Assembly: GCA_964461115.1 (NCBI GenBank)
Contig: CAYWSX010000006.1
Location: 60,892-124,891, forward strand
Origin: an uncultured Muribaculaceae bacterium
Lineage (GTDB): Bacteria; Cyanobacteriota; Vampirovibrionia; Gastranaerophilales; Gastranaerophilaceae
Reading direction: 5' to 3'
DNA: 64,000 nucleotides
Part shown: in pieces, positions 5,048 to 60,163 of the stretch
How the letters are laid out: each line of letters begins with the position of its first letter
Numbering within the stretch: the first letter of the stretch is position 1
Made by a program: the position numbers and the translations under genes
The notes under the pieces: generated by a model
Told to the model about the DNA's origin: nothing
Databases searched by the model: none
What the model saw: only the letters and a program-made list of their open reading frames with translations

Positions 5048-5398
5048 ATGTACGCAATAGTTGAAACAGGCGGAAAACAATACCCTATGGAAGAAGGAAG
5101 ATACATCGATATCGAACTTCTTGAAGGCGAAAAAGACGAAAAAGTTGTTTTTGATAAAATTGTTATGCTTGTAAACGGTAAAAAATCAAAAGTTGGTCAG
5201 CCTTATGTTGAAAAAGCGACAGTAGAAGGCAAAATTATGACTCACGATAAATCAAAAAAAGTTATCGTATACAAACAAAGACCTAAAAAAGGATACAGAA
5301 AAAAACAAGGTCACAGACAAGGCTTTACAAGAGTTATGATTAGCAAAATCAGAACTACAGCGGCTAAAGTAGCTAAAGAAGAAGCAGCTGCAGAATAG
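5048..5398 (+). CDS. rplU: 50S ribosomal protein L21
   Basis: MYAIVETGGKQY... canonical L21 N-terminus. Basic C-terminal extension. Confidence 0.95.
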   Translation: MYAIVETGGKQYPMEEGRYIDIELLEGEKDEKVVFDKIVMLVNGKKSKVGQPYVEKATVEGKIMTHDKSKKVIVYKQRPKKGYRKKQGHRQGFTRVMISKIRTTAAKVAKEEAAAE

Positions 5399-11053: not shown

Positions 11054-11081
11054 AAAGCCCTTTTTTGATGAGGGCTTTTTA
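11054..11081 (+). terminator. Rho-independent terminator
   Basis: AAAGCCCT (11054-11061) / AGGGCTTT (11071-11078), then a T-run. Confidence 0.65.
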
Positions 11082-11110
11082 TTGACCAAAATAGCAAAAC
11101 TTGATAATAT
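11082..11110 (+). promoter_or_regulatory. Promoter of pilin-like paralog 1 (part of a conserved 5' cassette, 11082-11174)
   Basis: TTGACC (11082-11087), 17 nt, TAATAT (11105-11110). The stretch from the -35 box to the G-run is nearly identical to 17120-17211. Confidence 0.6.
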
Positions 11111-11169
11111 ATAAAAATAAGAAATTTATTATTATGGAGAAGTGTGGAAAATGGCTAAAATATTGACTT

Positions 11170-12093
11170 TTGCAGGGGGGGGGGCGACTCCTAAAAGATA
11201 AAAGTGACAAAAAATTCACTTTTTTCGGAAGTTATCTAAGTCGTATATTTTTTCCTAATTTAATCCCTCGTAAAAAAGCGTTTTCTATTGCTGAGGCAAT
11301 GATTACAATGCTCATAGTGAGTGTTGCTTTGGCAGCCATGGCGCCAGTAATGACAAAAAAGGCTCAAAATAATATGGGCGGTAATTCGAAATGGCTTTAT
11401 ACAAAAAATGGTTCTGATATCACCCGCACAGGAGGGAATGTAGGTATCGGCGTGCCTGCTAATACAAATCCTTCCGCAAAACTTCACATCAAAGACGGTA
11501 AACTATTAATTGAAAATAATTCAGCTATTTCAATTGAAATTGTTTACGATAATGACACAGCACCTGTTTTGCTGAGAAATACCAAGTACAATACGAAATT
11601 AGTAATTGGTCCGAATAATTGGGGTAATACGCTTGTTTCATATGAAAATGACAAGGTTACATCTTTTATGAATAAAAATGGAGATGTCATTGAAAGAACA
11701 GCGAGCGGGGATATAAATAAGACGATTCCTCCTGCTATGCTGGCGTTTTTTGACAGCAATTGTCCTCCCGGATGGACAAATATGGCAGATTGGGGCTGGG
11801 GTGGAAGATTTTTGAGAATAGCCGGCTGGGATAATGCTCTTGGCGTAAATACTCCTCACGGTCAGTGGCAAGATCAAGCAGTAGGCTGGCATGAACATGA
11901 TTTGAATCCTGATATACGCTCGGTAAATGTCCGCTATGGCGGTGGTGGGGGAGAGTGGAGTGTAATTCTCTCAGGAGATGTTCAATATTATGATTGGTGG
12001 GCAAGGTCAACCAGAAAAATCAAAGCTAACGGTGCAGGTGGGGCGGATAATCGTCCTCGGAATATAGCTTTAAATCTGTGCCGAAAAAATTAA
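11170..12093 (+). CDS. Type IV prepilin-like N-terminus plus tail-fibre/tail-collar-like body, paralog 1. Phase-variable; the conserved ATG at 11151 is out of frame as assembled
   Basis: ...RKKA|FSIAEAMITMLIVSVALAAMAP (F+1, E+5, hydrophobic helix). GNVGIGVPANTNPSAKLHI. PPAMLAFFDSNCPPGWT...WGGRFLR. C-terminal RPRNIALNLCRKN. ORF opens at TTG 11170 only. Confidence 0.75.
   Translation: MQGGGRLLKDKSDKKFTFFGSYLSRIFFPNLIPRKKAFSIAEAMITMLIVSVALAAMAPVMTKKAQNNMGGNSKWLYTKNGSDITRTGGNVGIGVPANTNPSAKLHIKDGKLLIENNSAISIEIVYDNDTAPVLLRNTKYNTKLVIGPNNWGNTLVSYENDKVTSFMNKNGDVIERTASGDINKTIPPAMLAFFDSNCPPGWTNMADWGWGGRFLRIAGWDNALGVNTPHGQWQDQAVGWHEHDLNPDIRSVNVRYGGGGGEWSVILSGDVQYYDWWARSTRKIKANGAGGADNRPRNIALNLCRKN
11175..11184 (+). 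repeat. G10 homopolymeric tract (putative slipped-strand phase-variation switch)
   Basis: Counted directly: gca + 10 G + cgactc. ATG 11151 + 24 nt + G10 runs into TAA at 11199-11201. G9 or G12 would restore the frame. Confidence 0.9.
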
Positions 12094-17119: not shown

Positions 17120-17148
17120 TTGACCAAAATTGCAAATCTTGATAATAT
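17120..17148 (+). promoter_or_regulatory. Promoter of pilin-like paralog 2 (conserved 5' cassette, 17120-17211)
   Basis: TTGACC (17120-17125), 17 nt, TAATAT (17143-17148). Near-identical to 11082-11174. Confidence 0.6.
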
Positions 17149-17188
17149 ATAAAAATAAGAAATTTATTATTATGGAGAAGTGTGAAAA

Positions 17189-18280
17189 ATGGCTCAAATA
17201 TTGAACTTTGCGGGGGGGGGGCAAGCTCTAAAAGATAGAAGTGATAAAAAATTCACTTTTTTCGGAAAAATATTAAAGTGCTGTTTTGTTTTATATTCTT
17301 CCTCTTCTAAAAAAGGGTTTTCAATAGCGGAAGCGATGGTCACTTTGTTAATTGTTAGTGTTGCTTTGGCTGCAATGGCACCGATAATGACAAAAAAAGC
17401 ACAAAATAGTATAGGCGGGAATTCAAAATGGATGTTTACCAAAAATGGTAATGATATTTCAAGAATAACCGGAAATGTTGGTATAAATGTGCCTGCTAAT
17501 AATAATCCTGACGCAAAACTTGAAATACGCGGAGAAAATGGAATCGTCCTTACAGTAAAAGCTTCGTCAACTTCAAACAAAGATATAATTGTTGTTCAAA
17601 AGGGCGGGAGAGAGTTGGCAAAATTTGATAAAGATGGCGTTTTGTATCTCAGTCAGGCTATGAATGTAACCAATTCGACTCAAAATACTTCGTGGAATCC
17701 TGTTACAACCTGGGACGGAAATACATGGAAAAATTCACTTCAGCGGGATGGGGGATTGTCAATTAATACGAGTGCTAATCGCCGTGTTTTTAGCGCTTTT
17801 TTGAACGGCACGGAAAGAGTGTGGATAAATTCAGACGGCTCGTCTTCGTTGGCAGGTGTCCCAACCGGTATGGTGGCATTTTTTAATTTGCAAACTTGTC
17901 CTTCGGGGTGGTCGCCTATTAACTGGCAATGGAACGGAAGGTTTCCAAGATTTTCAGGCAATTACGGTATATGTAATTGGTCAGAAAGTGACGGAAATTG
18001 TGACGGAAATGGTCAGAAAGAATGGGTAACATGGAATTGGGTAGGCAGAATGGACGGAGACGCTTCTCGCCCGATATGGGGTGAGTACGGCACTGTTAGA
18101 GGCTGGGGTGCTGATGCCCAAGGTGCTTTTTACAATGCTTGGTGGACGGGGCAAAACGGACGGTCAGATAAATCGGGTGAGGCACAACACAGAATCGGTT
18201 TTAACTCAAATCGTGCGGTTCCTACGGCAAATGAAAATAAGCCAAAATCAGTCGCATTGTTAGGCTGCCAAAGAAATTAG
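17189..18280 (+). CDS. Type IV prepilin-like N-terminus plus tail-fibre/tail-collar-like body, paralog 2. G-tract in frame (ON)
   Basis: MAQILNFAGGGQALKDRSDKKFTFFG...SSKKG|FSIAEAMVTLLIVSVALAAMAP. GNVGINVPANNNPDAKLEI. PTGMVAFFNLQTCPSGWS...WNGRFPRFSG. C-terminal KPKSVALLGCQRN. Confidence 0.85.
   Translation: MAQILNFAGGGQALKDRSDKKFTFFGKILKCCFVLYSSSSKKGFSIAEAMVTLLIVSVALAAMAPIMTKKAQNSIGGNSKWMFTKNGNDISRITGNVGINVPANNNPDAKLEIRGENGIVLTVKASSTSNKDIIVVQKGGRELAKFDKDGVLYLSQAMNVTNSTQNTSWNPVTTWDGNTWKNSLQRDGGLSINTSANRRVFSAFLNGTERVWINSDGSSSLAGVPTGMVAFFNLQTCPSGWSPINWQWNGRFPRFSGNYGICNWSESDGNCDGNGQKEWVTWNWVGRMDGDASRPIWGEYGTVRGWGADAQGAFYNAWWTGQNGRSDKSGEAQHRIGFNSNRAVPTANENKPKSVALLGCQRN
17212..17221 (+). repeat. 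G10 homopolymeric tract, in frame with ATG 17189
   Basis: Counted directly: ttt gc + 10 G + caagct, read as GCG GGG GGG GGG = AGGG. Confidence 0.9.
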
Positions 18281-18358
18281 GTTTTCTTTTATTGAATTGA
18301 CTTATTTAAAATATATTGCTAGGATAGGAAAAATAACTGTTTTTTGGAGAAATATACA

Positions 18359-18877
18359 ATGCAAGATAAGGCAAAATTTTTCAGCGAAATCAAAGGTTTT
18401 TCTATTGCTGAAGCAATGATTACAATGTTAATCGTAAGTATAGCAATGGCTGCGATGGCGCCGATTATGTCGAAGAAAATCCAATCAGACGGCAAATCTT
18501 CGGCAGTTATCCCATCCGGAATGGTTTCTTTTTTCAACTTATCGACATGTCCTAACGGTTGGTCGGCAGTAAACGGATCTTGGAATAACAGGTTCATAAG
18601 AATAGCAAATGGTGCCCGTGCGGTAGGCAGCACACAAGAAGATGCAATGCTTGATGCCAGTGGTGCGATATGGGGGATTACTTCAAAAAATTGGGCTGAT
18701 GCAAATGGAGTTTTTAGGGTAACTGCCAGCCCTGGCTCTGAAGCAAGGGGACAGGGGACAACTTGGCAAGAGCGTACTTTTGAGTTTAGATTAAGTTTTG
18801 ATCCTGCACTCGCAGGTCGAATATCTAATGAAGTCAGACCAAAAAATGTGGCATTGCTTGCCTGTCAAAAAAATTAA
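18359..18877 (+). CDS. Short type IV prepilin-like plus tail-collar-like protein, paralog 3 (short leader, no G-tract)
   Basis: MQDKAKFFSEIKG|FSIAEAMITMLIVSIAMAAMAP. PSGMVSFFNLSTCPNGWS...WNNRFIR. C-terminal RPKNVALLACQKN. GGAG lies 9 nt before ATG 18359 (the ORF track starts at TTG 18344). Confidence 0.8.
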   Translation: MQDKAKFFSEIKGFSIAEAMITMLIVSIAMAAMAPIMSKKIQSDGKSSAVIPSGMVSFFNLSTCPNGWSAVNGSWNNRFIRIANGARAVGSTQEDAMLDASGAIWGITSKNWADANGVFRVTASPGSEARGQGTTWQERTFEFRLSFDPALAGRISNEVRPKNVALLACQKN

Positions 18878-28462: not shown

Positions 28463-28921
28463 ATGCAAAAAAAAATTATTTTAGAAAGCAGAATAGGATT
28501 AAAACTGGTACAACTTGGTACTTTGGCCAGAGTTCATGCAGGGCAGATTTTTTCTGAGAAGAATTTGTCGATTACTCCTGAGCAATTTACTGTGCTGTCT
28601 ACTCTTGTTGCTGAGAATGGTTTATATGCTCGTCAAATTTCATCGATTACGTTAAAAGACCGCCCAAATATTTCCAGAATATTGAAAATTCTTGAAAAAG
28701 CCGAATTAATTACAAAAAAAGCTGATGTGAACAAAAGGAAGATTTATAAAGTTTTTATTACGGAGAAGGGGAAAGCTATATACGAAGAAGCTCTTCCTGT
28801 GATTATAAGTCTTTGGAATCAGATAATGGTAGATATAGACGAATCGACAATCAATCTTCTTATTCCCGCTTTAGAAAAAATGAAAGAAAATTTACAAGAT
28901 AAGGTTAATATGCAAATTTAG
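28463..28921 (+). CDS. MarR family transcriptional regulator
   Basis: wHTH pattern LTPEQFTVLSTL...ARQISSITLKDRPNISRILKILEKAELI. Confidence 0.85.
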   Translation: MQKKIILESRIGLKLVQLGTLARVHAGQIFSEKNLSITPEQFTVLSTLVAENGLYARQISSITLKDRPNISRILKILEKAELITKKADVNKRKIYKVFITEKGKAIYEEALPVIISLWNQIMVDIDESTINLLIPALEKMKENLQDKVNMQI

Positions 28922-40071: not shown

Positions 40072-41394
40072 CTAATTATTTGAAGGAGTGGATTTGTGGC
40101 TGTTTTTTTTGTAAAAATATGTAATTAGGCCAAAAACGGCAGCAGCAGTTATGCTTATCCCGGTTATTTGTTTTTTACTGAGTTTTTTCAATTCATTTTT
40201 AGCTTTGTCTGCTGTTTTTTTCAATTGAGTTGACGCATTTTCTGTTTCATTATCCAGTTTTCTAAATTGTTCGCTCAAAACCTCGCCTTCATTCCTCAAT
40301 TTAGTTTTTTCTTCGGCATAACTATTGTAGGCAGAAGTAATTTTGCCAAATGCCTCTTCATTTTCTTTGAAAAAAGCCTTGTGTTGTTCAAAGTCAGACA
40401 GTTTAATATTTTTCGGCAATTCAAATCTTTGTGGATAAGCTTTGGCAGCTCGAACCTCCAATGTAATTGGTGGGTAGTTGCCATAGTTATCTCTTGGCAA
40501 AAGTTCCGGCAATGCATTATAGCCTACATAAGGATGAGCCCCTATGAGTGAATTTACTTTTGGTATGATTTGCTGTATTTCTGATTCTGTTGGGGTTTTA
40601 TTGACTTGTCTTAATAAGTCTTTGAATCGTGGCTCATCAAAGGCCTTGCGAATTTCTGTCCAATTGTGGTTTCTGATATCTTCAAACAATACTTCTAAAT
40701 TTTGGTTGTGAGGACTTGTAAAGATTATTTTGATATTGGAATTAGGAGTAGCCAATGTATTTAGGATATTTTTGACTTTTGAAATGTCTTCAGCATTATT
40801 TGCCGTTGGGTCTAAATATTTGGCAAAGTTTTCAAAGTGGAGCAAGGTTTTCTTACCTGTTTTTGCGTTTTGTTCATTTGCAGCGGAAATTGCTTCATTA
40901 ATTTGTGCAAAAAATTGGTTTGAATTTTCTACTGCACTGATTTTTTTAAAATCGTAGTATTTATAGAAGTCCAGACTATCTATGTTCGAATTTTTCGCAT
41001 GCATGTCTATAAAATCTATGAAGGTAGTTGCTAATTCTTTATTTTCCGAGTTTATAATGAAAAAGTTATTATATGGGGATTGTCGGAAAGCACCAAAAAC
41101 TTCCTCCGCGCTTTTGCATAGATTTGCAAATTCAGGCTTAGAATCTTTTGCATTATTTATTATTGCGGAATATTCACGAACTAATTCCGGTAGTTTTAAT
41201 CCTGCCAGGTCGTTACTTAATTTCTTTTCAAGCGAAATAGATCTGTTGGTTAATACCTGATTCTGATTGCGTAATGACTTTTCAGATATTTCAACCGAAT
41301 CGGATTTTGAAGGTTGGCTGCCTCGAAAGGAGACACTATTGGTATTTTGTCTTGCCGATATAGGTAGAACTTGGGTGTTTAAACTAATTTTCAT
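40072..41394 (-). CDS. Hypothetical protein with coiled-coil and C-terminal TM anchor
   Basis: 440-aa ORF. N-terminal RQNTNSVSFRG motif. C-terminal ITGISITAAAVFGLITYFY helix. 11-nt overlap with the upstream gene. Confidence 0.65.
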   Translation of the reverse strand: MKISLNTQVLPISARQNTNSVSFRGSQPSKSDSVEISEKSLRNQNQVLTNRSISLEKKLSNDLAGLKLPELVREYSAIINNAKDSKPEFANLCKSAEEVFGAFRQSPYNNFFIINSENKELATTFIDFIDMHAKNSNIDSLDFYKYYDFKKISAVENSNQFFAQINEAISAANEQNAKTGKKTLLHFENFAKYLDPTANNAEDISKVKNILNTLATPNSNIKIIFTSPHNQNLEVLFEDIRNHNWTEIRKAFDEPRFKDLLRQVNKTPTESEIQQIIPKVNSLIGAHPYVGYNALPELLPRDNYGNYPPITLEVRAAKAYPQRFELPKNIKLSDFEQHKAFFKENEEAFGKITSAYNSYAEEKTKLRNEGEVLSEQFRKLDNETENASTQLKKTADKAKNELKKLSKKQITGISITAAAVFGLITYFYKKNSHKSTPSNN

Positions 41395-49995: not shown

Positions 49996-52900
49996 ATGGG
50001 CTTTTTTGGCGTTTTAAATAACATAAGAGCAAACCGAGACAACTTTAAAAAGTGGGAAAAAGAGGAAGCGGACAATGACGCCCGCCGTCAGGAGCTTTAT
50101 AAAAACAATAAAATGACTGAAGAAGAGCTGGCTCAAAAAAAGAAGCTGGCTGAAACTATTATTGATACGATTTCAGTAATGGACCAAAAATCTGAGGATG
50201 TTGCTGAAGATGTGGAAACGGTAACGCAGCCGATAGTGTCTATGTCCATGACGCTAAGCGGGCTTGCTGCATTTTTACTTGGTTCTGCCTACGGAAAGAA
50301 AAAGTTTAGAGAACGAGGAGCAAAGCTTGATGTAATAAGAAAGCAAATAAACCAAGAACAGCTGGAGCAGATTAGAGAGCTCAATATTTCCGAGGGTAAA
50401 AATAAAAGGTTTAATACTAATGAAGTTTTTTCTCCTAAGAAAAATAAAAAGAGCATACAAATACCAAAAGAGCTTGAATCACTGGTTGCAAAGATTAGAC
50501 GAGAATATGCCGCTGTTACAAAATCATATAAGAAATATGTTGTCGGAATTCCTGTGGGCATTGTTGCTACTGCAATAGGCGGCTTTGTCGCGTCTGTTCT
50601 TTACACCACGAAATTGCAGGTAGGAAGCTCTCGTATAGCGCGTTTTCAAGCAAGAGAAGACCTTGAAAATCCAAAAAACTTTGTTATGTATACAGATGAG
50701 CAAATTGAGCATGCAAAAAAAGAAATCCAAAACAAACCTGAAAAGAAAAAAGGCTTTTGGGCAAAATTAACCAATAAGGAAGATGGTGAAAAAACAGGTT
50801 TAATCTCTTCTGTGGGGAATTTGAAAGACCTTGCGGTTAATAAGAGCCGATATGACAAATGGAAAGCTAAAAATGACAAGCGGGACCCTCGTATCAAGCG
50901 CACATTGACTCCTGAAGAACTTCAAGAGGCTAAAAATGACAAGGTTGTAATACAACGTTTAACAAAAAAAGTAAACAACAAAGCTGAAGAATACTCTGAG
51001 AATATGGAAACAGCCGCGACTGTTATTATAGGCAGTTCTTTGCTTGGAGGGCCTATTTTAGGGGGAAGTGTCGGCTGGATTTTGAATAAATTAGGCTTGG
51101 GTGATAAACTTGCAAGAAAAGTGATAGCTAAGTATGCAGATGAGGATACAGCAAAAATATATGATGAAATACTAAAATTAGACCCGAAAGTTGAAGCGAA
51201 TAAATTCAAGATAAAAGAATTAAAATCTGAGTTAAGGCAGGCTATAGAAATGTCGGGTGAAGGCCCTGAAGATAAAGTAAGACGATTTACCGGAATTATT
51301 GATGATGCACAAGCGGAACTCAAACTTGCAAAAGAAAATAACAATTCGGAAAGAGTTAAAGAGCTTACTCAAAAAATAGACCGAAAATTAGCTGCTTTGA
51401 ATAACATTAATCCTATTGCTATGCCGGATAAAGAAATCAAGGAACTTAGAAGATTTCAAAAAGGTTCGGTTAAATCAGAAATGATCGATGGCGTTAAGAA
51501 ATTTGCAGCGCATGTTTCTTCGACTAAATTAGGCAGAAGTATGGCTATAGCCGGAATAACAGGCATGTTAACTACGGTGATAGGTGCCTATATTGCATTA
51601 AAGCTGCAAAAACAAGCGGGGCGTGCAGGAAGATTCGCAGCAAAACAAGATTTTAAGGAAAATCCGCAGGAATTTATAAATTATTCAGAAGAAGAATTAA
51701 ATTCCGTAAAACATATAACGGCGCCTGAAAAGACTCGCACTCAGAGGTTTAAAGAATACATGTCTTTCCTTCCTCGCGTATTCAAGCAGTATAGGGAGTA
51801 TCGCGCATATAAAAAAGGTGAATTTAAGCAAGAAAAAGCGTTGCGTGAAGAACTCATAAATCTTGAAGTGACGCCTGAACAGCTTCGCGAAGGCAAAAAT
51901 CTTCAAAGAAAATTATTTAATACTTTCGAAAAAATAGATGACAAATCGCAGGAATACTCTGAAAATATGGAAGCCGCAACAGATATTTCGCAGCAATTGT
52001 TGTGGATGGGTAATTATGCTGCTATTATGGCGCCGATTATAGGTACGTCATTAGCTGTTGCATCAGGTAAAATTACAGGTCCGCAGCTTGGAATCAGAGT
52101 AGCAGACTTTTTATCAAGATTCTCGTTCATTGCTAAGTCCAAATTTTTCCAAAAATACGTGACTCAAGTATCTGAAAAAATAGAAGAAACCGTGCAGAGC
52201 CAAGTTATACGAAATTATGGAAATAATGAAGAAAGTCACTTGGCACAAACGCTAAAAGATATGACAGGCGGCGAAAAAGGTAAAAAATTACAATCGTTTG
52301 TAAATCATGCGAGCGAGCCTCTTTTGGTTATGCTTCAAGAAGGTATAAATAAACATCTGCCAAAGCTCCGAGGTGCTATTGAAAAAGCCGATAAAAAATC
52401 ATTAGAATCTCTGATTAAAAAGCTACAAGCTTTACCGGAAGTTGATTCGAAAACAATAACGGAGGCATTAAAAGGAAAAACTTTGGCTGATTTGAGTGAT
52501 TCTAAACTGATTGGTGATCTTTTAAATAGCGTTGGGCTGAAGGGTAAGTTTACTGAAGCTGAAATTAAAGTCTATACAGATGTAGTAAGTAAGGCAAAGG
52601 CTCTTATTCCTAAAGAAGTAGAAAGTTTATTAGCTTCGCCGATTCCACTGTCGAAATCAACAATAGAAACTTTAAACAAGGCTGTTGGAGGCTTTAAAAC
52701 GTCTGAAGTGGAAAAAATTTCCTCTGAGCTGGAAGTATTCTTGTCACATCAAAAAGATGCAGTTCAACTTATGAAAACTTTGGAAAGAGTGAACAAGAAT
52801 ATCCCTGTTGGGGTAATTAACGACGCGGTTAAGAAAATACTTGACATTGCAATCAAAGAACCTCAAAAATTCGCCAAAATGCTTGAAAATCCTCAAGAAT

Positions 52901-53193
52901 TTAAAAATATATTAATGACTAAAAATCTTTCTATGCTCCTTTTAGCGAGCGGCATTTCTTGGGGTGTCTTTACAACGGCAGTTACGTTTGCTATTCAGTC
53001 TTACTTCGCAAAATTGCAGATTGAAGCTGGCAGATTGGGCGTAATGAAGGCTATGGACGAACTCAGTGACCCGACTATTTACGCAGATGAAACCCCTAAA
53101 GAAATTCAAGCCGGCGGTGAGTCTCGTTATATTCCATCGGCTCAGCCTAATGCCTCAATAGCAGGAAATATTCAAAACTTGTTGAAAAAATAA
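49996..53193 (+). CDS. Large (1065 aa) hypothetical membrane protein built from three internal repeat modules
   Basis: Three copies of [..EELxxxK...(E)YSENME(T/A)A + TM ... TM + KLQ...GR..RF.A..D..NP..F..Y]. About six predicted TM helices, with coiled-coil-like spacers. Confidence 0.75.
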   Translation: MGFFGVLNNIRANRDNFKKWEKEEADNDARRQELYKNNKMTEEELAQKKKLAETIIDTISVMDQKSEDVAEDVETVTQPIVSMSMTLSGLAAFLLGSAYGKKKFRERGAKLDVIRKQINQEQLEQIRELNISEGKNKRFNTNEVFSPKKNKKSIQIPKELESLVAKIRREYAAVTKSYKKYVVGIPVGIVATAIGGFVASVLYTTKLQVGSSRIARFQAREDLENPKNFVMYTDEQIEHAKKEIQNKPEKKKGFWAKLTNKEDGEKTGLISSVGNLKDLAVNKSRYDKWKAKNDKRDPRIKRTLTPEELQEAKNDKVVIQRLTKKVNNKAEEYSENMETAATVIIGSSLLGGPILGGSVGWILNKLGLGDKLARKVIAKYADEDTAKIYDEILKLDPKVEANKFKIKELKSELRQAIEMSGEGPEDKVRRFTGIIDDAQAELKLAKENNNSERVKELTQKIDRKLAALNNINPIAMPDKEIKELRRFQKGSVKSEMIDGVKKFAAHVSSTKLGRSMAIAGITGMLTTVIGAYIALKLQKQAGRAGRFAAKQDFKENPQEFINYSEEELNSVKHITAPEKTRTQRFKEYMSFLPRVFKQYREYRAYKKGEFKQEKALREELINLEVTPEQLREGKNLQRKLFNTFEKIDDKSQEYSENMEAATDISQQLLWMGNYAAIMAPIIGTSLAVASGKITGPQLGIRVADFLSRFSFIAKSKFFQKYVTQVSEKIEETVQSQVIRNYGNNEESHLAQTLKDMTGGEKGKKLQSFVNHASEPLLVMLQEGINKHLPKLRGAIEKADKKSLESLIKKLQALPEVDSKTITEALKGKTLADLSDSKLIGDLLNSVGLKGKFTEAEIKVYTDVVSKAKALIPKEVESLLASPIPLSKSTIETLNKAVGGFKTSEVEKISSELEVFLSHQKDAVQLMKTLERVNKNIPVGVINDAVKKILDIAIKEPQKFAKMLENPQEFKNILMTKNLSMLLLASGISWGVFTTAVTFAIQSYFAKLQIEAGRLGVMKAMDELSDPTIYADETPKEIQAGGESRYIPSAQPNASIAGNIQNLLKK

Positions 53194-53907
53194 TTAAGAA
53201 CAAAGTTTGCATTCAGGATTTTTTGCAATGTTTATTGTTTTAAATTCGTTTGTTAAAAAATTCACCGTCAAAAGTTTGTTTTCAAGAGAAGTGCCGATTT
53301 GAAGTAAATATTTTACCGCCTCAAGCGTCTGAATCGACGCAATTGCTGAAACGACAGGGCTTATAACACCTTTAGGGACATAATTTTCTGTATCAGTGTT
53401 GTTTAAAATGCATTCAAGGCAGGCTGTTTTTGGGGGAATAATTGTTGTTACCTGACCGTAGAATTCTGTCACACCTGCATGTATCAACGGCAGGTTTTCA
53501 AGTACTGCAATTTCATTTAACAAAAATTTTGATTCATAAGAATCGAAGCAATCCAAAATCAGATTATAGCCTGAAATTATCTCTTGATAGTTATTTTTGT
53601 CTAAATTAAGTTCAAATTTTTCAATTTTTGTTGAGGGATTAAACTCCGCTACCCACTCAGAGGCTGAATCGGCTTTGCTTTTGCCTGTATTTTTGTTTTT
53701 GTGGATATATTGGCGGTTTAGGTTGCTTTCTTCAACGACATCTTTGTCCAAAATGCCTATTTTGCCTATTCCTAACGCTGCCAGGTTTGCAATAACAGTA
53801 GAACCCAGCCCTCCGGCTCCGCAAACCAAAATACTTGCGCTAAAAAGCTTTTTCTGGCCTTCTTCGCCAATTTCTTTTACAAGAATGTTTCTGCTGTATC
53901 TTTCCAA
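53194..53907 (-). CDS. ThiF/MoeB/HesA-family E1-like adenylyltransferase
   Basis: GAGGLGS nucleotide-binding loop and two CxxC pairs (CLEC..., CKLC). Confidence 0.85.
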   Translation of the reverse strand: MERYSRNILVKEIGEEGQKKLFSASILVCGAGGLGSTVIANLAALGIGKIGILDKDVVEESNLNRQYIHKNKNTGKSKADSASEWVAEFNPSTKIEKFELNLDKNNYQEIISGYNLILDCFDSYESKFLLNEIAVLENLPLIHAGVTEFYGQVTTIIPPKTACLECILNNTDTENYVPKGVISPVVSAIASIQTLEAVKYLLQIGTSLENKLLTVNFLTNEFKTINIAKNPECKLCS

Positions 53908-53929
53908 AATTTAACTTTCTACAAAATTA

Positions 53930-54946
53930 TCAAAAGGTTTTTATGAGTTTAATTATAGAATAAATTGCCGTTGAAACCAATATGCAGGCAGGAATTGTTA
54001 AAACCCAAGCCGTAACAATGTTTCCGACTACTCTCCATTTGACACTTCCGGCGTTAATTGTGGAACCGACGCCCATTATTGCAGTCGAAATAACGTGAGT
54101 TGTACTCAAAGGGATACCGAAGTGAGAAGCCGTCAAGATAAGTGTTGCTGCTGATGATTCCGCAGCAAAAGCGTTGATTGGCTTAAGTCTTATAATTTTA
54201 TGCCCCATTGTGCGAATAATTTTCCAGCCGCCCGACATGGTTCCTGCTGCAAGCATAATTGCGCAGATTAAAATTACATAAACAGGGATATCAAATCCGC
54301 CGTCGGGATTTTTGCTTAAAACTCCACCTGCCAAGAGTGACAAAGTGATAATCCCCATTGTTTTTTGCGCGTCGTTTGAGCCATGGCTCAATGCTATTAA
54401 GCCCGCTGAGAAAAATTGGAGTTTTCTGAATCTTTTGTTAACGACTTGAGGATTGGAAAAGTAAAAAATTCTTAGAAGTGTCAGCATAAGTAAGAAACCT
54501 GTGCAAAATCCCAGCATAGGAGAGGCAAACATAGGGATGATTACTTTTTCGACTAAACTTACAACATGTACACAGCCGAAACCCGCTTTTGCCACAGCAG
54601 CACCGATTAGCCCGCCGATAAGCGCATGAGAGGAGCTTGAAGGCAGCCCCAGCCACCAGGTAAGCAAATTCCATATGATTGCGGCTAGAAGTGCGCTTAA
54701 AACAACCGTAAGCGTAATCATATCGGCATTAACTATACCTGAGCCGATTGTTTTTGCGACGTGTGTTCCTGTTAATGCCCCAATAAATTCCAGCACCGCC
54801 CCGAAAAGGACAGCTTGCTTTGGTGAAAGTACTTTTGTTGAAACTACTGTTGCGACAGCGTTTGCGCAGTCATGAAATCCGTTAATATATTCGAACGCCA
54901 GAGCCGTTATAACTACGGCTATTAATAATAAAATTGTTATTGTCAT
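53930..54946 (-). CDS. pit: PiT-family inorganic phosphate transporter
   Basis: NGFHDCANAVATVVST and GSNDAQKTMGII PHO4 motifs. Confidence 0.92.
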   Translation of the reverse strand: MTITILLLIAVVITALAFEYINGFHDCANAVATVVSTKVLSPKQAVLFGAVLEFIGALTGTHVAKTIGSGIVNADMITLTVVLSALLAAIIWNLLTWWLGLPSSSSHALIGGLIGAAVAKAGFGCVHVVSLVEKVIIPMFASPMLGFCTGFLLMLTLLRIFYFSNPQVVNKRFRKLQFFSAGLIALSHGSNDAQKTMGIITLSLLAGGVLSKNPDGGFDIPVYVILICAIMLAAGTMSGGWKIIRTMGHKIIRLKPINAFAAESSAATLILTASHFGIPLSTTHVISTAIMGVGSTINAGSVKWRVVGNIVTAWVLTIPACILVSTAIYSIIKLIKTF

Positions 54947-54965
54947 TTTCCACTCACTTCAACAT

Positions 54966-55607
54966 TTAGCTTTGCTTAAGAACAATGTTCAAAATCGCGT
55001 CAGATACCGCATAGCAGGAATCTAATGCGTTTTCTATTTCTTTATAAATGTCGCGGTATTTGATTACATCGATTGCATCATACTGCCCAGAGAACAAGTC
55101 GTCGATTGCTTTATGTAGGATTTCATCCCCATGAGATTCGATTTCTTTCATGACAATATTTGCTTTTGTAATTACGTTGAGGTCACTGACTTTTTTGAAT
55201 TTGGAGATAATGTCTTTTAATTCGGAAGTCGCGTTAACCAAGGTTTTTGCTTGTTCGCAGATTTCGTTAGTATATGTAGTGATTCTGTATACTTTAAGAT
55301 TTACGCAAGCTTTTGTAATTTTTTTATTAATTCTGTGCAAAAGAGCCGCGATATGCTGGATATCTTCTCTTTCGATAGGGGTGATAAAGCTTTTATTTAA
55401 CTGTTTCAATGTTAATTTAAAAGAGCGATTTCCCTTCTTCTTTAGTTTTAGAGCTTTTTCGACATGTTCTTCTGTAAGTGCAGTGTGCATAATTTCTTCG
55501 TATAAAGTTGCGGATTGGCTGCAAACCTCGGCGCTGTTTTGGAAAAGCTCGAAAAACATTTTGTCTTCAGGCGGCATTATGTATGATAATAAATTAAATT
55601 TTGGCAT
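54966..55607 (-). CDS. DUF47 (PhoU-like) phosphate-transport-associated protein
   Basis: Typical partner of pit. Start set at MPKFNLL with an AAGGAG RBS (55614-55619). Confidence 0.8.
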   Translation of the reverse strand: MPKFNLLSYIMPPEDKMFFELFQNSAEVCSQSATLYEEIMHTALTEEHVEKALKLKKKGNRSFKLTLKQLNKSFITPIEREDIQHIAALLHRINKKITKACVNLKVYRITTYTNEICEQAKTLVNATSELKDIISKFKKVSDLNVITKANIVMKEIESHGDEILHKAIDDLFSGQYDAIDVIKYRDIYKEIENALDSCYAVSDAILNIVLKQS

Positions 55608-55735
55608 ATTTTTCTCCTTTATCTCAAATATACCGTAAAAGAAAAACATAGCAATATTTTTTTAATAAAACTTTAAGGGAATGTTTTTTAATTTATTTTA
55701 GTAAAAAATATATATGATAAAAAGGGAGAAAAACT

Positions 55736-56050
55736 ATGTATAATTGTGTATTTACGCCGATAGATAAAATAGAGTACAAAAAATACGGTATTGCAGTGAA
55801 CAAACTTATTGAAGACGGATTGAATTCCCTAACATTAATGGCATTTGATAAAAATCAAGAAATTCCCACTCATACCGCACCTGTTGAGGTCTGTGTCATG
55901 GTGCTTGAAGGAGTTGTCGAATTTACTTTAAATAACGATGACAAGGAAAAGCTTGAGCTTCAAAAAGGAAGCATGTTTATTATGAAGCGTGAAACGCCGC
56001 ATTCGGTTTTTGCTAAAACTATGGCAAAGATGATGCTGATAAAGCTGTGA
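55736..56050 (+). CDS. Cupin-domain protein
   Basis: 104 aa. HTAPVEVCVMVLEGVVEF...PHSV cupin-like pattern. Confidence 0.6.
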   Translation: MYNCVFTPIDKIEYKKYGIAVNKLIEDGLNSLTLMAFDKNQEIPTHTAPVEVCVMVLEGVVEFTLNNDDKEKLELQKGSMFIMKRETPHSVFAKTMAKMMLIKL

Positions 56051-56621
56051 TTTTATCGTATTCTTTTTTAATCTCTTGAATATCCTGCCACATAAGCCAT
56101 TTTGGGCTGCCTTTTTCACGGGAATCGTTTCTTAAAAGATATGACGGATGAAAAATCGGCATCATTTTTTCGCCGTTCGGACCGTCAAACCATTGTCCTC
56201 GAATTCTTGTTATTCCAAGAGTGGTACTCATCATAGACTGTACAGCAACTCGTCCGCAAAGCAGAATAATTTTCGGCTTTAAAATTTTAAGCTGCGCGTC
56301 AAGATATTCGCGGCATGCTTCTTTTTCTTCCGGGAGCGGATCACGGTTGTCAGGTGGGCGGCATTTAAGAGTGTTGCAGATGTAAATATCTTTTTTCCGA
56401 GAAAGTCCTACTGACGTAAAAATTTTGTCCAAAAGCTGCCCTGCTTTACCCACAAACGGCTCGCCTTTTTGATCCTCCCAATATCCCGGTGCTTCACCGA
56501 TAAGAACCATATTATGGTTTGGCATGCCTGAAGAAAATACGAGATTTGTACGTGTTTTTCCGAGAGAACATTTTTGACAATCCTTGCATTTTGCTTCTAT
56601 TTCTCTTAATTCAGCTTCCAT
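56019..56621 (-). CDS. udg: Family 4 uracil-DNA glycosylase (Fe-S type)
   Basis: CxxCxxC...GEAPG...EPFVGKAGQLLD and HPS motif. Confidence 0.9.
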   Translation of the reverse strand: MEAELREIEAKCKDCQKCSLGKTRTNLVFSSGMPNHNMVLIGEAPGYWEDQKGEPFVGKAGQLLDKIFTSVGLSRKKDIYICNTLKCRPPDNRDPLPEEKEACREYLDAQLKILKPKIILLCGRVAVQSMMSTTLGITRIRGQWFDGPNGEKMMPIFHPSYLLRNDSREKGSPKWLMWQDIQEIKKEYDKITALSASSLP

Positions 56622-56782
56622 AAAACACTCCTTATGTTTTTTAGAACAAATCCAAATAAATTTTGTGTTTTTATTATATCACAATGAATTTTACATCAAA
56701 ATGTTGATATTGTTTGACTAAGCACCAAAAAATTGATAGCATGTAACATGTGAATATTCTATATCGGGTAATAAAGTAGAAA

Positions 56783-57628
56783 ATGTCTGACAATACTAAA
56801 AAATTTGCTTTTTCTGTGGCTGAAGCGATGATTACAATTTTAATTGTAAGCGTTGCACTTGCTGCAATGGCTCCTATTATGACAAAAAAGAGCCAGAATA
56901 CAGCTTCAGGCAACTCAAAATGGATGTTTACCAGAAACGGTAACGATATTACGCGTGTTACAGGAAACGTCGGTATCGGAAATTCTGTAAGCACTAATCC
57001 TTCTGCCAGACTGGAGATTAGAAATGATACCAGTGACGGTGCTGTAAGAATATACAGGGGAAATACAATGGTAGTCCAAGTTGGCGCAAGCGGAGATATA
57101 TATGTAAATGATAACCGCACTTCAGGCAATGATTCAATTGCCACGGCTCAAAACGGTACTTGGCGCAACGCATTAAGAAGAGATGGCGGGCTTTATGTCA
57201 ACGCCGCAACCAGAACCCAGCGTGCACTCAGTATTAATTCACCGAATGGCGAAACAGCTTGGGTTAATGCAGATGGAAGTTCTTCATTCGGAGTTCCGTC
57301 AGGTATGGTTGCTTTTTTTGCCAGAGCGGCAGGCTGCCCTACGGGGTGGACAAATTTGACCGAGTGGGGCTGGGGCGGATTGTATTTCAGGGTAGCTGAT
57401 GGAGCCAATCCATATAATGTTTATCAAGATTCACAAAATAAATGGCATTCTCACCAATTCCGTAACCAGATGACATGGGATAATATGAATTACAGAAACC
57501 AGACAATAGGGCGCGGTGATAACGGAGATTTGCTGGGACCTTACTATAACGAAGCTGCAATCTTACCCGAAGGCGGCAACGAGGCTCGTCCACGAACCGT
57601 TCCTTTGTACGGGTGTGTTAGAAACTAA
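56783..57628 (+). CDS. Type IV prepilin-like N-terminus plus tail-fibre/tail-collar-like body, paralog 4 (short leader, no G-tract)
   Basis: MSDNTKKFA|FSVAEAMITILIVSVALAAMAP. GNVGIGNSVSTNPSARLEI. PSGMVAFFARAAGCPTGWT...WGG. C-terminal RPRTVPLYGCVRN. Confidence 0.8.
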   Translation: MSDNTKKFAFSVAEAMITILIVSVALAAMAPIMTKKSQNTASGNSKWMFTRNGNDITRVTGNVGIGNSVSTNPSARLEIRNDTSDGAVRIYRGNTMVVQVGASGDIYVNDNRTSGNDSIATAQNGTWRNALRRDGGLYVNAATRTQRALSINSPNGETAWVNADGSSSFGVPSGMVAFFARAAGCPTGWTNLTEWGWGGLYFRVADGANPYNVYQDSQNKWHSHQFRNQMTWDNMNYRNQTIGRGDNGDLLGPYYNEAAILPEGGNEARPRTVPLYGCVRN

Positions 57629-57638
57629 AACTAATATC

Positions 57639-57667
57639 TTGCACCTTATTCATAAATTTGTTAATAT
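57639..57667 (+). promoter_or_regulatory. Promoter of pilin-like paralog 5
   Basis: TTGCAC (57639-57644), 17 nt, TAATAT (57662-57667), followed by the conserved ATGGAGAAGT(A/G)TGGAAAATGGCT leader. Confidence 0.5.
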
Positions 57668-57726
57668 ATGAAAATAGAAAATTTTATTTCATGGAGAAGT
57701 ATGGAAAATGGCTAGATTATTGACTT

Positions 57727-58416
57727 ATGCAGGGGGGGGGGCGAATCCTAAGGGATAAGAGTGATGAAAAATTCACTTTTTCCGGAAATTTGAATGGAGG
57801 CAGCTTCAATTTTAATTTCTTTTGCTCTAAAAAAGCTTTTTCTATCGCTGAAGCGATGATTACTTTGCTGATTGTAAGTATGGCGCTTGCTGCAATGGCT
57901 CCGATGGTTTCTAAACAAGTTAAAGGTGTCAATAATTCGATTGATAAAGATGCGTTAAAAAACGAAATAATAAAAGAGCTTCAGAAAGATTTGGTTCCCA
58001 AAGGGTCTGTTATGTTTGTTTCTAAAATTGAGGAATATAAGGGCAATAACGCTTGTCCTCAGGGCTGGCGTAATGCAGGTTCCGCATGGGATGGACGATA
58101 TCCGCGCATGACGACCGATTTCAATGCAATAGGGGTATTGGCTGATGAGTCTTTGCCAAATATTACAGGCTGGCTGCATGATTGGACAAATAATTTTATG
58201 GTAACACATGCCAACGGCGCTTATGTAGTAGGGGCTTCTGATCAAAATGAGCGGACTGCGGATGTTCAAGGTTCGCAAGACCCTTATGCCAACAATCATG
58301 GGCAGATTAGCGGAATTTTGCAGTTTGATGCTTCAAAATCGAATCCTATTTATGGGCGTTCAGGTAATGAGGTTCTTCCCAAAACAGTCCATTTAGCTGC
58401 ATGTGTGAAAAACTAG
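57727..58416 (+). CDS. Type IV prepilin-like plus tail-collar-like protein, paralog 5. Phase-variable; the conserved ATG at 57708 is out of frame as assembled
   Basis: ...CSKKA|FSIAEAMITLLIVSMALAAMAP. NACPQGWRNAGSAWDGRYPR. C-terminal LPKTVHLAACVKN. ORF opens at ATG 57727, 2 nt before the G-run. Confidence 0.75.
   Translation: MQGGGRILRDKSDEKFTFSGNLNGGSFNFNFFCSKKAFSIAEAMITLLIVSMALAAMAPMVSKQVKGVNNSIDKDALKNEIIKELQKDLVPKGSVMFVSKIEEYKGNNACPQGWRNAGSAWDGRYPRMTTDFNAIGVLADESLPNITGWLHDWTNNFMVTHANGAYVVGASDQNERTADVQGSQDPYANNHGQISGILQFDASKSNPIYGRSGNEVLPKTVHLAACVKN
57732..57741 (+). repeat. G10 homopolymeric tract (putative phase-variation switch)
   Basis: Counted directly. ATG 57708 + 24 nt + G10 runs into TAA at 57756-57758. 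G9 or G12 restores the frame. Confidence 0.9.
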
Positions 58417-59207
58417 TGTAACTGTTCCCTTTGATAAGCCCATGCAGAGTGGTTATGAATGCTTTCGAAGGCTTCGCATTCAACTTCAAAATATTTTATA
58501 ATTTTATTTTCTTTTAACTTTAAAATTACGTCGCGAATTACATCTTCAACGAATTTAGGGTTTTCGTATGCTCTTTCGGTAACAAATTTTTCATCTTCGC
58601 GTTTTAAAATCGGATAAAGTTCGCATGAGCCGCAGCTTTCAGCAAGTTCAATTAAGTCTTCAAGCCAAATATGGTCTTTTTCGTCGTATCCCACGATAAT
58701 TTTAATCATTGCGCGCTGATTGTGCGCACTGTATTTTGAAATTTCTTTTGAACAAGGACAAAGTGTTGTCACGGGTACTTTTACGCCCAGTAGAAATTCG
58801 TAATTATTTTTCTTTAAATTGCCCTCAAAAGAACACTCATAGCCCATTACAGACTCAGATTTACTCACGGGTGCTTGTTTTTTCAAAAAATATTTGAATG
58901 TGAATCTAACGTGAGCACTTTTGGCTTCTAATCTGTCCTGAAAATCTTTCAAAATTCCTTTAATATCAATCCCAAGCAAGTCTTTTGCTCGCCATTCATC
59001 CATTATTTCCATAAATCTCGACATGTGTGTGCCTTTGTAGTCGCGAGGCAATGCCACGCTCATTCTGGCTTTTGCTGAAACAGTCTGGTTGGACTCATTT
59101 TTGCGTTGAATTACAAGCGGAATTTCGACGTCTTTTACGCCTACTTTTTGGATATCAATTCCACGAGTATCTATCAAATTTTGTATGTCTTTTAAAAATT
59201 TACTCAT
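58413..59207 (-). CDS. folE2: GTP cyclohydrolase FolE2/MptA (type IB)
   Basis: KGTHMSRF and CPCSKEIS..SAHNQR motifs. Start set at MSKFLKD (M30 of the track ORF). Confidence 0.9.
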   Translation of the reverse strand: MSKFLKDIQNLIDTRGIDIQKVGVKDVEIPLVIQRKNESNQTVSAKARMSVALPRDYKGTHMSRFMEIMDEWRAKDLLGIDIKGILKDFQDRLEAKSAHVRFTFKYFLKKQAPVSKSESVMGYECSFEGNLKKNNYEFLLGVKVPVTTLCPCSKEISKYSAHNQRAMIKIIVGYDEKDHIWLEDLIELAESCGSCELYPILKREDEKFVTERAYENPKFVEDVIRDVILKLKENKIIKYFEVECEAFESIHNHSAWAYQREQLH

Positions 59208-59532
59208 TGTCCGTTTCTTCTGTTTCTTGCGATTGTGCTTCGAGGTTTTGCAAAAGTTTTTTAGCCGCTTTGCGCTGTATCTCAGGCGGGGCAACTCTCA
59301 ATGTTTCCATAGCTTTAATTAAGATAGGATCGTTGTCATACCAGCGGTTACCCTTGTTATGGAATTCGGTGACCATCTCATAAACTTTTTCTATGACATC
59401 TTTAGCGATTTCCTCTTGAAGTTTTATGATAAAATCAGTCGCGCCTGCTTGCTTGTCAGCGGGCTGCAATTGTAAAAGCTCAAGTGCTTCTTTTAATACA
59501 GGGTCTTTGTCGTACCAGCGTTGATTTGCCAT
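59200..59532 (-). CDS. Small hypothetical protein with tandem (N)RWYD(K/N)DP repeat
   Basis: NQRWYDKDPVLKEALELLQLQP and GNRWYDNDPILIKAMETLRVAP. AAGGAAAG RBS. Overlaps the folE2 start by 8 nt. Confidence 0.65.
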   Translation of the reverse strand: MANQRWYDKDPVLKEALELLQLQPADKQAGATDFIIKLQEEIAKDVIEKVYEMVTEFHNKGNRWYDNDPILIKAMETLRVAPPEIQRKAAKKLLQNLEAQSQETEETDNE

Positions 59533-59542
59533 TTTTCTTTCC

Positions 59543-60163
59543 TTATATTTTTTCGTCAATAATTTTTTTAACCTGCGCAAAAACTTCTTCAATCGAAAGG
59601 TTTGCGTCGATAACGCTTACTCTTTGAGGCTCTTGCTTTGCGATTTCAAGGTAGCCGCTTCTTACTCTTTCGTGAAAAGCTTTTCCTGCGCTTTCCATGC
59701 GGTCTTTTTCAGCTCCGACGCGAGTTTGCGCAACCTCTGCCGAAACATCGAAAATGAAAGTCAAATCAGGCTTAATGCCTTGCGTAGCAATGTTGTTGAG
59801 GTAATTAATTCGCTCAATATCTTCTCCGCGCCCGTATCCTTGATATGCAACAGACGAGTCCGTGTGACGGTCGCATAAAACGATTTGACCTGTTTCAATT
59901 GCCGGTTTTACCAATTTTGCAACGTGCTGTGCGCGATCTGCCAGAAACAAAAAAGCCTCCGCGGTTGGTGCGATGTCTGCGTCATAATGAAGAATAAGCT
60001 CTCTGAGCTTTTGCCCGAGACCGATTGAGCCGGGTTCGCGAGTAACAATAGTATTTTCACCTTTTTCTTCAAGATATTTTGCAAGCAGATTAAGCTGTGT
60101 TGTCTTTCCGCAGCCGTCTCCACCTTCAAACGTTATAAAAAGTCCCTTTGTTGTGTTTTCCAT
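59543..60163 (-). CDS. tmk: Thymidylate kinase
   Basis: FITFEGGDGCGKTTQ P-loop and DRH..S motif. Confidence 0.95.
   Translation of the reverse strand: MENTTKGLFITFEGGDGCGKTTQLNLLAKYLEEKGENTIVTREPGSIGLGQKLRELILHYDADIAPTAEAFLFLADRAQHVAKLVKPAIETGQIVLCDRHTDSSVAYQGYGRGEDIERINYLNNIATQGIKPDLTFIFDVSAEVAQTRVGAEKDRMESAGKAFHERVRSGYLEIAKQEPQRVSVIDANLSIEEVFAQVKKIIDEKI

Follow-up and report, generated by a model that had tools for sequence, protein, structure and literature searches.

Poly-G tracts in the leader region of pilin-like genes as a probable phase-variation switch in an uncultured Gastranaerophilaceae bacterium

Introduction

Phase variation by slippage in homopolymeric tracts is a textbook mechanism in a few pathogens, and Cj1295 is said to be one example of it in Campylobacter jejuni. 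In Neisseria, a poly-G tract is located in the signal-peptide coding region of pilC1 and pilC2, which encode a pilus-associated adhesin, and CTCTT repeats are located in the leader-peptide coding region of the opa genes, which number ca. 11 paralogs. Here, we describe a 64,000-nucleotide (nt) stretch of contig CAYWSX010000006.1 (positions 60,892 to 124,891; assembly GCA_964461115.1) of an uncultured bacterium placed in the Gastranaerophilaceae; this whole stretch is called the window below. A run of ten G (G10) at 11175-11184 lies in the 5′ coding part of a pilin-like gene (paralog 1), and it is likely to be the mutable element of a slipped-strand-mispairing phase switch in the leader region of a surface-protein family. 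The literature searched contained no report of phase variation in Melainabacteria or Gastranaerophilales; the mechanism is known, and the lineage and the gene family are new for it.

The loci resemble the poly-G/C loci of C. jejuni and Helicobacter pylori in that runs in the range of G8-G13 are present in the 5′ coding part of surface-related genes of an AT-rich genome, many loci with mixed ON (body in frame with the start) and OFF (body out of frame) states occur per genome, and the run lengths are bimodal. Unlike those loci, they belong to Melainabacteria, which are uncultured gut commensals in which the switching is predicted from sequence; they have a conserved, apparently portable 5′ module in which start and tract are always 8 codons apart; and they are limited, as far as seen, to one gene family. 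As proposed for the present genes, pilC of Neisseria has a pilus-associated binding protein (a predicted role here) gated by a G run within the region for the leader or signal peptide, with paralogs switching independently. However, there is no sequence homology between the two systems, and PilC is not pilin-like, whereas the switched protein here bears a pilin-type N-terminus. As in opa, a multigene surface family carries a repeat in a conserved 5′ leader, and independent switching would amount to combinatorial expression, although opa has a pentamer repeat in place of a homopolymer, and its products are beta-barrel outer-membrane proteins rather than pilin/tail-fibre chimeras.

A 'shufflon PilV N-terminus + phage tail collar' fusion gene is a target of programmed inversions (PMC9881135). 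The R64-type shufflon PilV/collar fusion and the present proteins have in common a type-IV-pilin-type N-terminus joined to a variable, tail-fibre/collar-related receptor-binding C-terminus, and in both, expression or identity varies within the population, as is proposed here for the present family. PilV varies by recombinase-mediated DNA inversion, whereas the variable here would be homopolymer length, with no adjacent recombinase or inverted cassettes. The window proteins gave no match to PF04917, and neither recombinase nor prophage genes were found among the neighbours of the window paralogs.

Results and discussion

G10 tracts and reading frames of three paralogs

The window (37% G+C) contains exactly three G runs longer than 5, all of them G10 and all at the 5′ ends of genes of the pilin-like family, at 11175-11184 (paralog 1), 17212-17221 (paralog 2), and 57732-57741 (paralog 3); other G runs reach at most 5 and C runs at most 6, while the A and T homopolymers include A9 at 28467-28475 and runs of A8 and T8. 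Nine overlapping G8 matches (three loci) were observed against a mean of 0.21 in 100 dinucleotide-preserving shuffles, and the three tracts are real and beyond chance. In each paralog, the tract begins 8 codons past a conserved ATG preceded by a Shine-Dalgarno (SD) motif.

In paralog 1, the codons from ATG 11151 are ATG GCT AAA ATA TTG ACT TTT GCA, followed by GGG GGG GGG GCG ACT CCT AAA AGA TAA. The frame read from this ATG at G10 is thus a 16-codon dead-end ORF (open reading frame; 11151..11201, + strand) that encodes MAKILTFAGGGATPKR and stops at TAA 11199-11201. The sole long ORF of the gene is an intact body of 307 codons in the +1 frame (11170..12093, + strand), which opens at a TTG 5 nt ahead of the run and corresponds to the NCBI annotation P0021. 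When one G is removed, the frame from ATG 11151 becomes MAKILTFAGGGRLLKDKSDKKFTFFG..., in which MAKILTFAGGG is fused to RLLKDKSDKKFTFFG..., and the product is colinear with the in-frame paralog 2. At G9 or G12 a protein of 313 amino acids (aa) results, while at G10 the frame stops after 5 codons and at G11 after 3. Paralog 2 (17189..18280, + strand; P0001, 363 aa) has a frame of 363 open codons from ATG 17189 and is ON. It is in frame at the same length of 10 because its run takes up the third base of the Ala codon (GC+G10, not GCA+G10), the codons reading GCG GGG GGG GGG CAA. Paralog 3 (57708..58416, + strand) has GCA+G10 as in paralog 1; from ATG 57708 it is OFF, with a stop at TAA 57756-57758, and it would be ON at G9 or G12. 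Its body ORF at 57727-58416 is intact (229 aa, P0037).

The original prediction, made from the sequence of the window, had described the G10 run of paralog 1, the short frame from ATG 11151 with its TAA, the +1-frame body of 307 codons opening at TTG 11170, and the G9 fusion colinear with the paralog at 17189; sequence, translation, ORF reading, and alignment agreed with it on each of these. It had further held such a run to be unexpected in AT-rich DNA and to recur in three paralogs, which the shuffles and the homologous codon positions of the other two runs, respectively, confirmed.

These tracts thus have several features of homopolymeric contingency loci, namely an uninterrupted 5′ coding run of at least ca. 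8 nt in which a one-unit change toggles between the full ORF and an early stop, and over-representation combined with clustering in one class of genes. Among the 45 ORFs of the window, GGG accounts for 15% of Gly codons, and the other Gly-Gly-Gly sites (n = 4) have mixed codons. This codon usage, together with relatives that have GEG, GWG, GRG, or no Gly at the place of the tract, ruled out selection of Gly-Gly-Gly purely at the protein level. A G-quadruplex or other structural role was dropped, since a single run cannot form an intramolecular G-quadruplex and since the length, not the sequence context, varies. Recoding of TGA at the conserved body-frame TGA at 11164 was also ruled out, because 4 of the 45 ORFs end in TGA and all others in TAA or TAG; stop usage in the window ORFs is that of the standard genetic code.

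Tracts in related genomes

In 345 kb of related loci, the number of G/C runs decayed smoothly from length 1 to 7, no run of 8 was present, and 16 runs of 9-13 were found, giving a bimodal distribution in which all long runs lie at the 5′ ends of family genes. Two metagenome-assembled genomes (MAGs), JAZTWQ01 and JAZUBS01, have between them at least 16 uninterrupted tracts of 9 or more G. Tract and body are fused as in the window paralogs in 12 genes of four genomes. All 12 have an ATG with a good SD motif exactly 24 nt ahead of the tract (23 nt in paralog 2), and in all 12 a one-unit change toggles between a full-length product and an early stop. Their tract lengths are 9, 10, 11, or 13; five genes are ON and seven are OFF. 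Both wrong frames reach a stop within 0-5 codons, whereas the bodies are open over 208-352 aa and end in a conserved ...NRP..[AV]L..C.K. motif in 10 of the 12 genes. The OFF tracts are all within two bases of the in-frame length, and within one base except in L050. In two pairs of near-identical tandem paralogs, the tract is the sole difference: L016a (G10, ON) and L016b (G9, OFF), and L008a (G10, ON) and L008b (G11, OFF). These pairs, and the G11 tracts of positional orthologues described below, serve as a proxy for polymorphism of tract length at one locus.

In the MAG JAZUBS01, six paralogs have a run broken by substitutions (e.g. GGGGAGGGGG, GGGTGGGGGG, GGGCGGGGG+A, and GAGGGGG). These interrupted tracts keep the in-frame length, and six of six are ON compared with 5 of 12 uninterrupted fused tracts (Fisher p = 0.038). 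Frameshifts are therefore linked to uninterrupted runs, which fits slippage and not random decay. Many relatives that lack a G run also conserve the long leader at the protein level, indicating that it is translated, and the homopolymer appears to be an overlay on a Gly-rich spot of this leader.

At the genomic slot of paralog 1, the MAG JAZTWQ01 has a G11 tract in the OFF state (L005) and JAZUBS01 has an interrupted tract in the ON state, while CALVAP01 and ENA contigs have a tract-less gene with a short leader. At the slot of paralog 2, JAZTWQ01 has ATGGCT...G11 in the ON state (L052). The JAZTWQ01 flanking proteins at these two slots are 79-91% identical to those of the window, and the presence of uninterrupted tracts at the same slots despite 10-20% divergence of the flanking proteins argues that selection maintains the tracts. 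The slipped-strand ON/OFF switch originally predicted is thus supported by the same architecture in at least three other Gastranaerophilales MAGs, by the mixture of ON and OFF states, by near-frame OFF lengths with intact OFF bodies, by the in-frame interrupted tracts, and by positional orthologues that carry tracts.

Upstream signals and proposed mechanism

A terminator hairpin with a U-run (11054..11081, + strand; minimum free energy of -12.3 kcal/mol, z = -3.5) belonging to the upstream flavodiiron-type gene directly precedes the -35 hexamer of paralog 1, so that this gene appears to be its own transcription unit; a matching hairpin follows rpoD ahead of paralog 2 (z = -4.0). A promoter scan gave a promoter-like TTGACC-17-TAATAT with a TG extension at 11082..11110 (+ strand) for paralog 1, and alignment to this site gave the same arrangement, again with the TG extension, at 17120-17148 (+ strand) for paralog 2. 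For paralog 3, a promoter-like TTGCAC-17-TAATAT was read from the sequence at 57639-57667 (+ strand). The SD motif GGAG at 11136..11139 (+ strand), 11 nt ahead of ATG 11151, recurs at 17174 and 57693.

The identity among the three paralogs is 76-89% both from the ATG to the tract and from the tract to FTFFG. Over the upstream 110 nt, paralogs 1 and 2 share 83%, and comparisons involving paralog 3 give 59-63%; the gene bodies are 42-54% identical. The differences are conservative or synonymous in the proposed frames on both sides of the tract (K/Q/R, I/L, T/N, F/Y, and GCA/GCG before it; R/Q, K/R, and GAC/GAT after it), and in each paralog 96 nt separate the tract and the pilin motif. Since in-frame ATG, GTG, and TTG codons are all absent between the tract and the pilin motif of paralog 1, translation of the complete pre-protein must begin no further downstream than the tract; ATG 11151 is presumably the start in use.

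The proposed mechanism is as described below. Each tract-bearing gene would be a separate transcription unit made up of a terminator, a TTGACC-17-TAATAT promoter, GGAG, ATG, 8 codons, and poly-G. The gain or loss of one G at replication would bring the body of 200-350 codons into frame for the ribosome or take it out again, and such changes in length would arise at a high rate within populations. The product would consist of a leader of ca. 43 aa, a type-IV-pilin-like cleavage/methylation motif and helix, and a C-terminal domain homologous with the receptor-binding/collar region of a phage short tail fibre. The switch would probably equip cell lineages with differing subsets of binding modules, borne on pili or anchored in the envelope, and this variation in subset would serve as bet-hedging against changes in host, phage, or niche.

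A conserved 10-codon ORF was also observed at the starts of the three paralogs (MEKCGKWLKY* at 11134-11166, MEKCEKWLKY* at 17172-17204, and MEKYGKWLDY* at 57691-57723). Its ATG overlaps GGAG and it always ends at TGA; it shares the frame of the body in paralogs 1 and 3, and in paralog 2 its frame is a third one with respect to the main start. In Logan contig L080 (P0019), an upstream ATG opens the equivalent frame, which is the one used by the gene, and GGGGGGAGG is what remains of the G run.

Features of the encoded proteins

In paralog 1 (+ strand), the remainder of the leader extends to 11280, FSIAEAM and a hydrophobic helix occupy 11281-11355, and a tail-fibre-like C-terminal domain begins at ca. 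11725 (IPPAMLAFF...CPPGW...NRPRNIALNLCRKN). The three window proteins have KK[G/A]|FS[IV]AEAMITLLIVSVALAAMAP (motif KK[G/A]|FS[IV]AEAM) followed by the hydrophobic helix. The F, S, A, and E residues of this motif are invariant in the family alignments, so that Phe+1, Glu+5, and a hydrophobic stretch are present as in pilins; at position -1, paralog 2 has the Gly typical of pilins, whereas paralogs 1 and 3 have Ala. The leader of the tract-bearing paralogs is 43 aa, in contrast to the short (ca. 5-30 aa), positively charged leader that is the norm for pilins, and tract-less paralogs have leaders of 9-20 aa. The leader may be removed by a prepilin peptidase. Neither a prepilin peptidase gene nor pilus assembly genes were found within the 64-kb window; another Gastranaerophilales genome encodes pilA, pilB, pilC, pilT, and pilD (PMC5877343).

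A profile of 27 family members, from which Collar-positive ones were excluded, matched the PDB entry 9cuy_c 'Short tail fiber' with E = 3.9e-16, and the motifs lvPxGxv...P.GW, DAIRNITG, and FDASR.VP..ENRPK are common to the family and 9cuy_c. The corresponding domains of the window proteins are at 11725-12093, 17858-18280, and 57994-58416, in a chromosomal, non-prophage context. Among the relatives, P0003, P0091, and P0118 match Collar (PF07484) weakly (E = 6e-6 to 1e-4; only P0118 above the cut-off), and P0019 matches T4 Gp10_C in Pfam. Taken singly, the window proteins have no Pfam match in the C-terminal domain, and single-sequence PDB searches with paralogs 1 and 2 gave nothing meaningful; the family profile alone reaches tail fibres. 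An AlphaFold2 model of paralog 2 built on a 20-sequence alignment had a mean pLDDT (predicted local distance difference test score) of 55 and a pTM (predicted template modelling score) of 0.26, which was too poor for a fold search.

The family is therefore like the phage short tail fibre and Collar proteins in its C-terminal-domain motifs. Unlike a phage short tail fibre, its genes have the chromosomal neighbours dnaK, dnaG, rpoD, and folE2, and a pilin-type membrane helix replaces the fibre shaft; unlike Collar domain proteins, the three window proteins are individually below the Pfam thresholds. The genes appear to encode chimeric proteins in which a pilin-type N-terminus is joined to a phage-tail-fibre-like domain with a predicted binding role, and the proteins may be adhesins. 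The term 'pilin-like' of the original prediction accordingly holds for the N-terminus, whereas the C-terminal domain is phage-tail-fibre-like.

Tract states in the source genome and alternative explanations

At least three further tract paralogs, one ON and two OFF, are encoded elsewhere in the source genome. The tracts verified in DNA are those of paralog 1 (G10, OFF), paralog 2 (G10, ON), paralog 3 (G10, OFF), and P0067 (GTC+G10, OFF), the last of which was read in the NCBI and Logan assemblies. P0007 (..VFAGGGE..) is ON according to its protein N-terminus, and P0003 (MSGGGQ..), which has a GTG-start call like P0067, is presumably OFF. Two ON genes among six tract genes is a typical picture for a contingency family. 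The organism was found only in the NCBI assembly and the runs SRR10912416 and SRR10912417. Paralog 3 was G10 in the Logan assemblies of both runs, and paralog 1 and P0067 were G10 in that of SRR10912417. In public annotation and gene calls, the OFF paralogs start at a TTG (P0021, 307 aa), an internal Met (P0014, 261 aa), or an ATG (P0037), and GTG starts ('MSGGG...') are called for P0067 and P0003; these arbitrary starts mask the conserved N-terminus and the frameshift.

Several observations weigh against a slipped-strand switch of the kind proposed. Length polymorphism at the same locus was not seen between the NCBI assembly and the Logan contigs for paralogs 1, 3, and P0067; the four DNA-verified tracts of the source genome are all exactly G10; and the G9 'ON' proteins of paralogs 1 and 3 were absent from a collection of 15 billion proteins. 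Each of the three DNA-verified OFF paralogs has, 5 nt ahead of the tract, a codon from which translation could start in the body frame (TTG 11170, ATG 57727, and a GTG at L083 52), and NCBI annotates the TTG as the start of paralog 1. The spacing of 11 nt between SD and ATG is at the long end of the range within the window; in relatives, GGAG lies 7-8 nt ahead of the equivalent ATG. As for the pilin-type N-terminus, PF07963 (N_methyl) matched the same site in all three window proteins with 17.9, 19.4, and 14.8 bits against a curated cut-off of 21.2, and TIGR02532 matched paralog 2 only, with 13.2 against a cut-off of 16.3. Finally, ca. ten paralogs of JAZTWQ01 have the cassette 400-700 nt upstream of a pilin gene with its own start, for which simple frame fusion is insufficient.

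The pilin genes of these spaced-cassette loci (L005, L006, L015, L017, L045, L052, L056, L057, L058, and L060) have their own SD and ATGATG (MMNLKPARA|FSVAEAM), and the cassette ORF, when ON, runs for 70-160 aa and then either stops or reads through into the pilin. It is possible that the spaced cassette acts by polarity on a long leader or encodes an independent small protein. A wider proposal, which we put forward tentatively, is that poly-G is part of a portable phase-variable expression cassette (promoter, SD, ATG, 8 codons, G(n), and leader) that would have spread by gene conversion or recombination among dozens of pilin/tail-fibre-like genes of Gastranaerophilaceae. In JAZTWQ01, the cassette would then be a phase-variable upstream ORF 0.4-0.7 kb upstream that controls the downstream gene by translation-dependent polarity and not by frame fusion.

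It is conceivable, though unlikely, that the tract modulates expression rather than switching it off. At G10, translation would start from the NTG located 5 nt before the run and give a leader shorter by 6 residues, perhaps with a lower level of protein, and slippage of RNA polymerase might restore the frame in some transcripts. The occurrence of such an NTG in the body frame of every DNA-verified OFF paralog and the NTG starts annotated by NCBI and gene callers agree with this explanation. A recognisable SD is found in only ca. half of the mechanically called window ORFs, so initiation without an SD may be common. On the other hand, an SD-like motif is absent 4-13 nt from TTG 11170 and ATG 57727, while the conserved ATG has GGAG; the NTG arises automatically where codon 7 ends in T and codon 8 begins with G; and the equivalent TTG in related species immediately precedes TAG. 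Moreover, the eight pre-tract codons are kept in length (24 nt) and character across diverged species, a conservation that would be senseless unless they are translated together with the body. For the proposed switch itself, the body-frame NTG means that the OFF state may be leaky, and weak NTG initiation or transcriptional slippage could be the cause.

It is improbable that paralogs 1 and 3 are plain pseudogenes, in which a one-time indel in an error-prone run took place with no reversible or adaptive switching. The identical G10 in the NCBI and Logan run assemblies and the public protein data without an ON allele would be expected of pseudogenes, and the ON fraction of 10 of 21 uninterrupted tracts does not differ significantly from the 1/3 of a random frame. 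However, all seven fused OFF genes (from three genomes) keep bodies of 208-310 aa, the conserved C-terminal motif is present in six, and their tracts keep the near-frame lengths described above. The uninterrupted homopolymers kept at orthologous positions beside diverged flanking proteins, and the interrupted tracts, always in frame, are likewise at odds with decay.

The least credible explanation, that the true length is G9 or variable and that G10 is a sequencing or assembly miscount of a paralog 1 really in frame, draws on the difficulty of 10-G homopolymers on most platforms and on reads that the NCBI MAG and Logan contigs may share, but two assemblers agree on G10 (in both runs at paralog 3, in a single run at paralog 1 and at P0067), so that with G10 in both runs wherever the loci were recovered an assembly miscount is unlikely, a uniform error would throw the in-frame paralog 2 out of frame, and relatives from other projects show the same mixture of in-frame and out-of-frame lengths.

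Family distribution and genomic neighbourhood

A profile search of 1.84 billion representatives gave 529 relatives at E <= 1e-10, and the family is concentrated in MAGs of Candidatus Gastranaerophilales/Gastranaerophilaceae. The window proteins are 75-93% identical to, and syntenic with, proteins of Gastranaerophilaceae MAGs, the syntenic blocks being dnaK-FDP-[pilin]-HD-dnaG, dnaG-rpoD-[pilin]-NAGPA, and UDG-[pilin]-folE2-tmk-serS. The neighbours of paralogs 1 and 2 are genes for dnaK, a flavodiiron protein, DUF561, dGTPase, dnaG, rpoD, and NAGPA, and those of paralog 3 are UDG, folE2, tmk, and serS. OEP, LptF/G, and SLH proteins are encoded in the window, and the source organism is diderm.

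Two tract-less family members with short leaders lie in the window. One (18359..18877, + strand; MQDKAKFFSEIKG|FSIAEAM) has its own promoter-like site at 18297-18325, and the other (P0006; 56783..57628, + strand; MSDNTKKFA|FSVAEAM) is directly upstream of paralog 3. The contigs of P0010, P0011, and P0002 likewise have short leaders and are tract-less. A search of metagenome contigs with the pattern GGAGAAGTNTGNAAAATGGCT gave 9 matches, all by chance and none with poly-G or a family gene, and no RNA family of Rfam matched in the window.

Other leaders of the order also contain unusual sequences. The leader of another kind of pilin-like gene (..KLG|FSLAETLITLVIIG), located in CALVAP01 (L009 4670-5434, - strand), contains a C13 run when read on the coding strand (5378-5390). 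The run encodes CPPPPC and is in frame; it looks like an independent case. Homopolymers in pilin leaders would thus have arisen more than once in the order. In the pilin leaders of L003, L004, L005, L014, L039, L045, and L056 of JAZTWQ01, MNLKP..A is split by insertions of ca. 45 codons that read KKERREQ...APQGLAPQ...WLNLTP, with an apparent duplication of NLK/NLKP. These insertions look like small repeat elements placed in frame; one hairpin was observed at L058 2683-2725.

Contig L020 (CAZVBZ010000004.1, labelled 'uncultured Muribaculaceae') is syntenic with 49996-61428 of the window (UDG, pilin, folE2, tmk, and serS) at 81-89% protein identity, and is probably a mis-binned or mislabelled Gastranaerophilaceae contig. 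Two large ORFs of the window, at 49996-53193 (+ strand, 1065 aa) and 40072-41394 (- strand, 440 aa), have no Pfam match. L020 has a homologue of the 1065-aa ORF at the syntenic place, with 40-56% identity in two segments.

Conclusions

The slipped-strand switch proposed here would place a known mechanism in a new lineage, the widespread and uncultured gut relatives of cyanobacteria. The present annotation of the OFF copies (P0021, P0014, P0067, and P0003) hides both the true N-terminus of the family and the switch. The hypothesis concerns many loci and can be checked on existing metagenomic reads, and the tracts could then report the selection that host, phage, or niche exerts on the cell surface in vivo. 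The unusual combination of a pilin-type N-terminus and a short-tail-fibre-like domain suggests pili tipped or decorated with phage-derived receptor-binding modules. If the poly-G cassette is indeed portable, this uncultured commensal lineage would have a large combinatorial repertoire of such modules on its pili.

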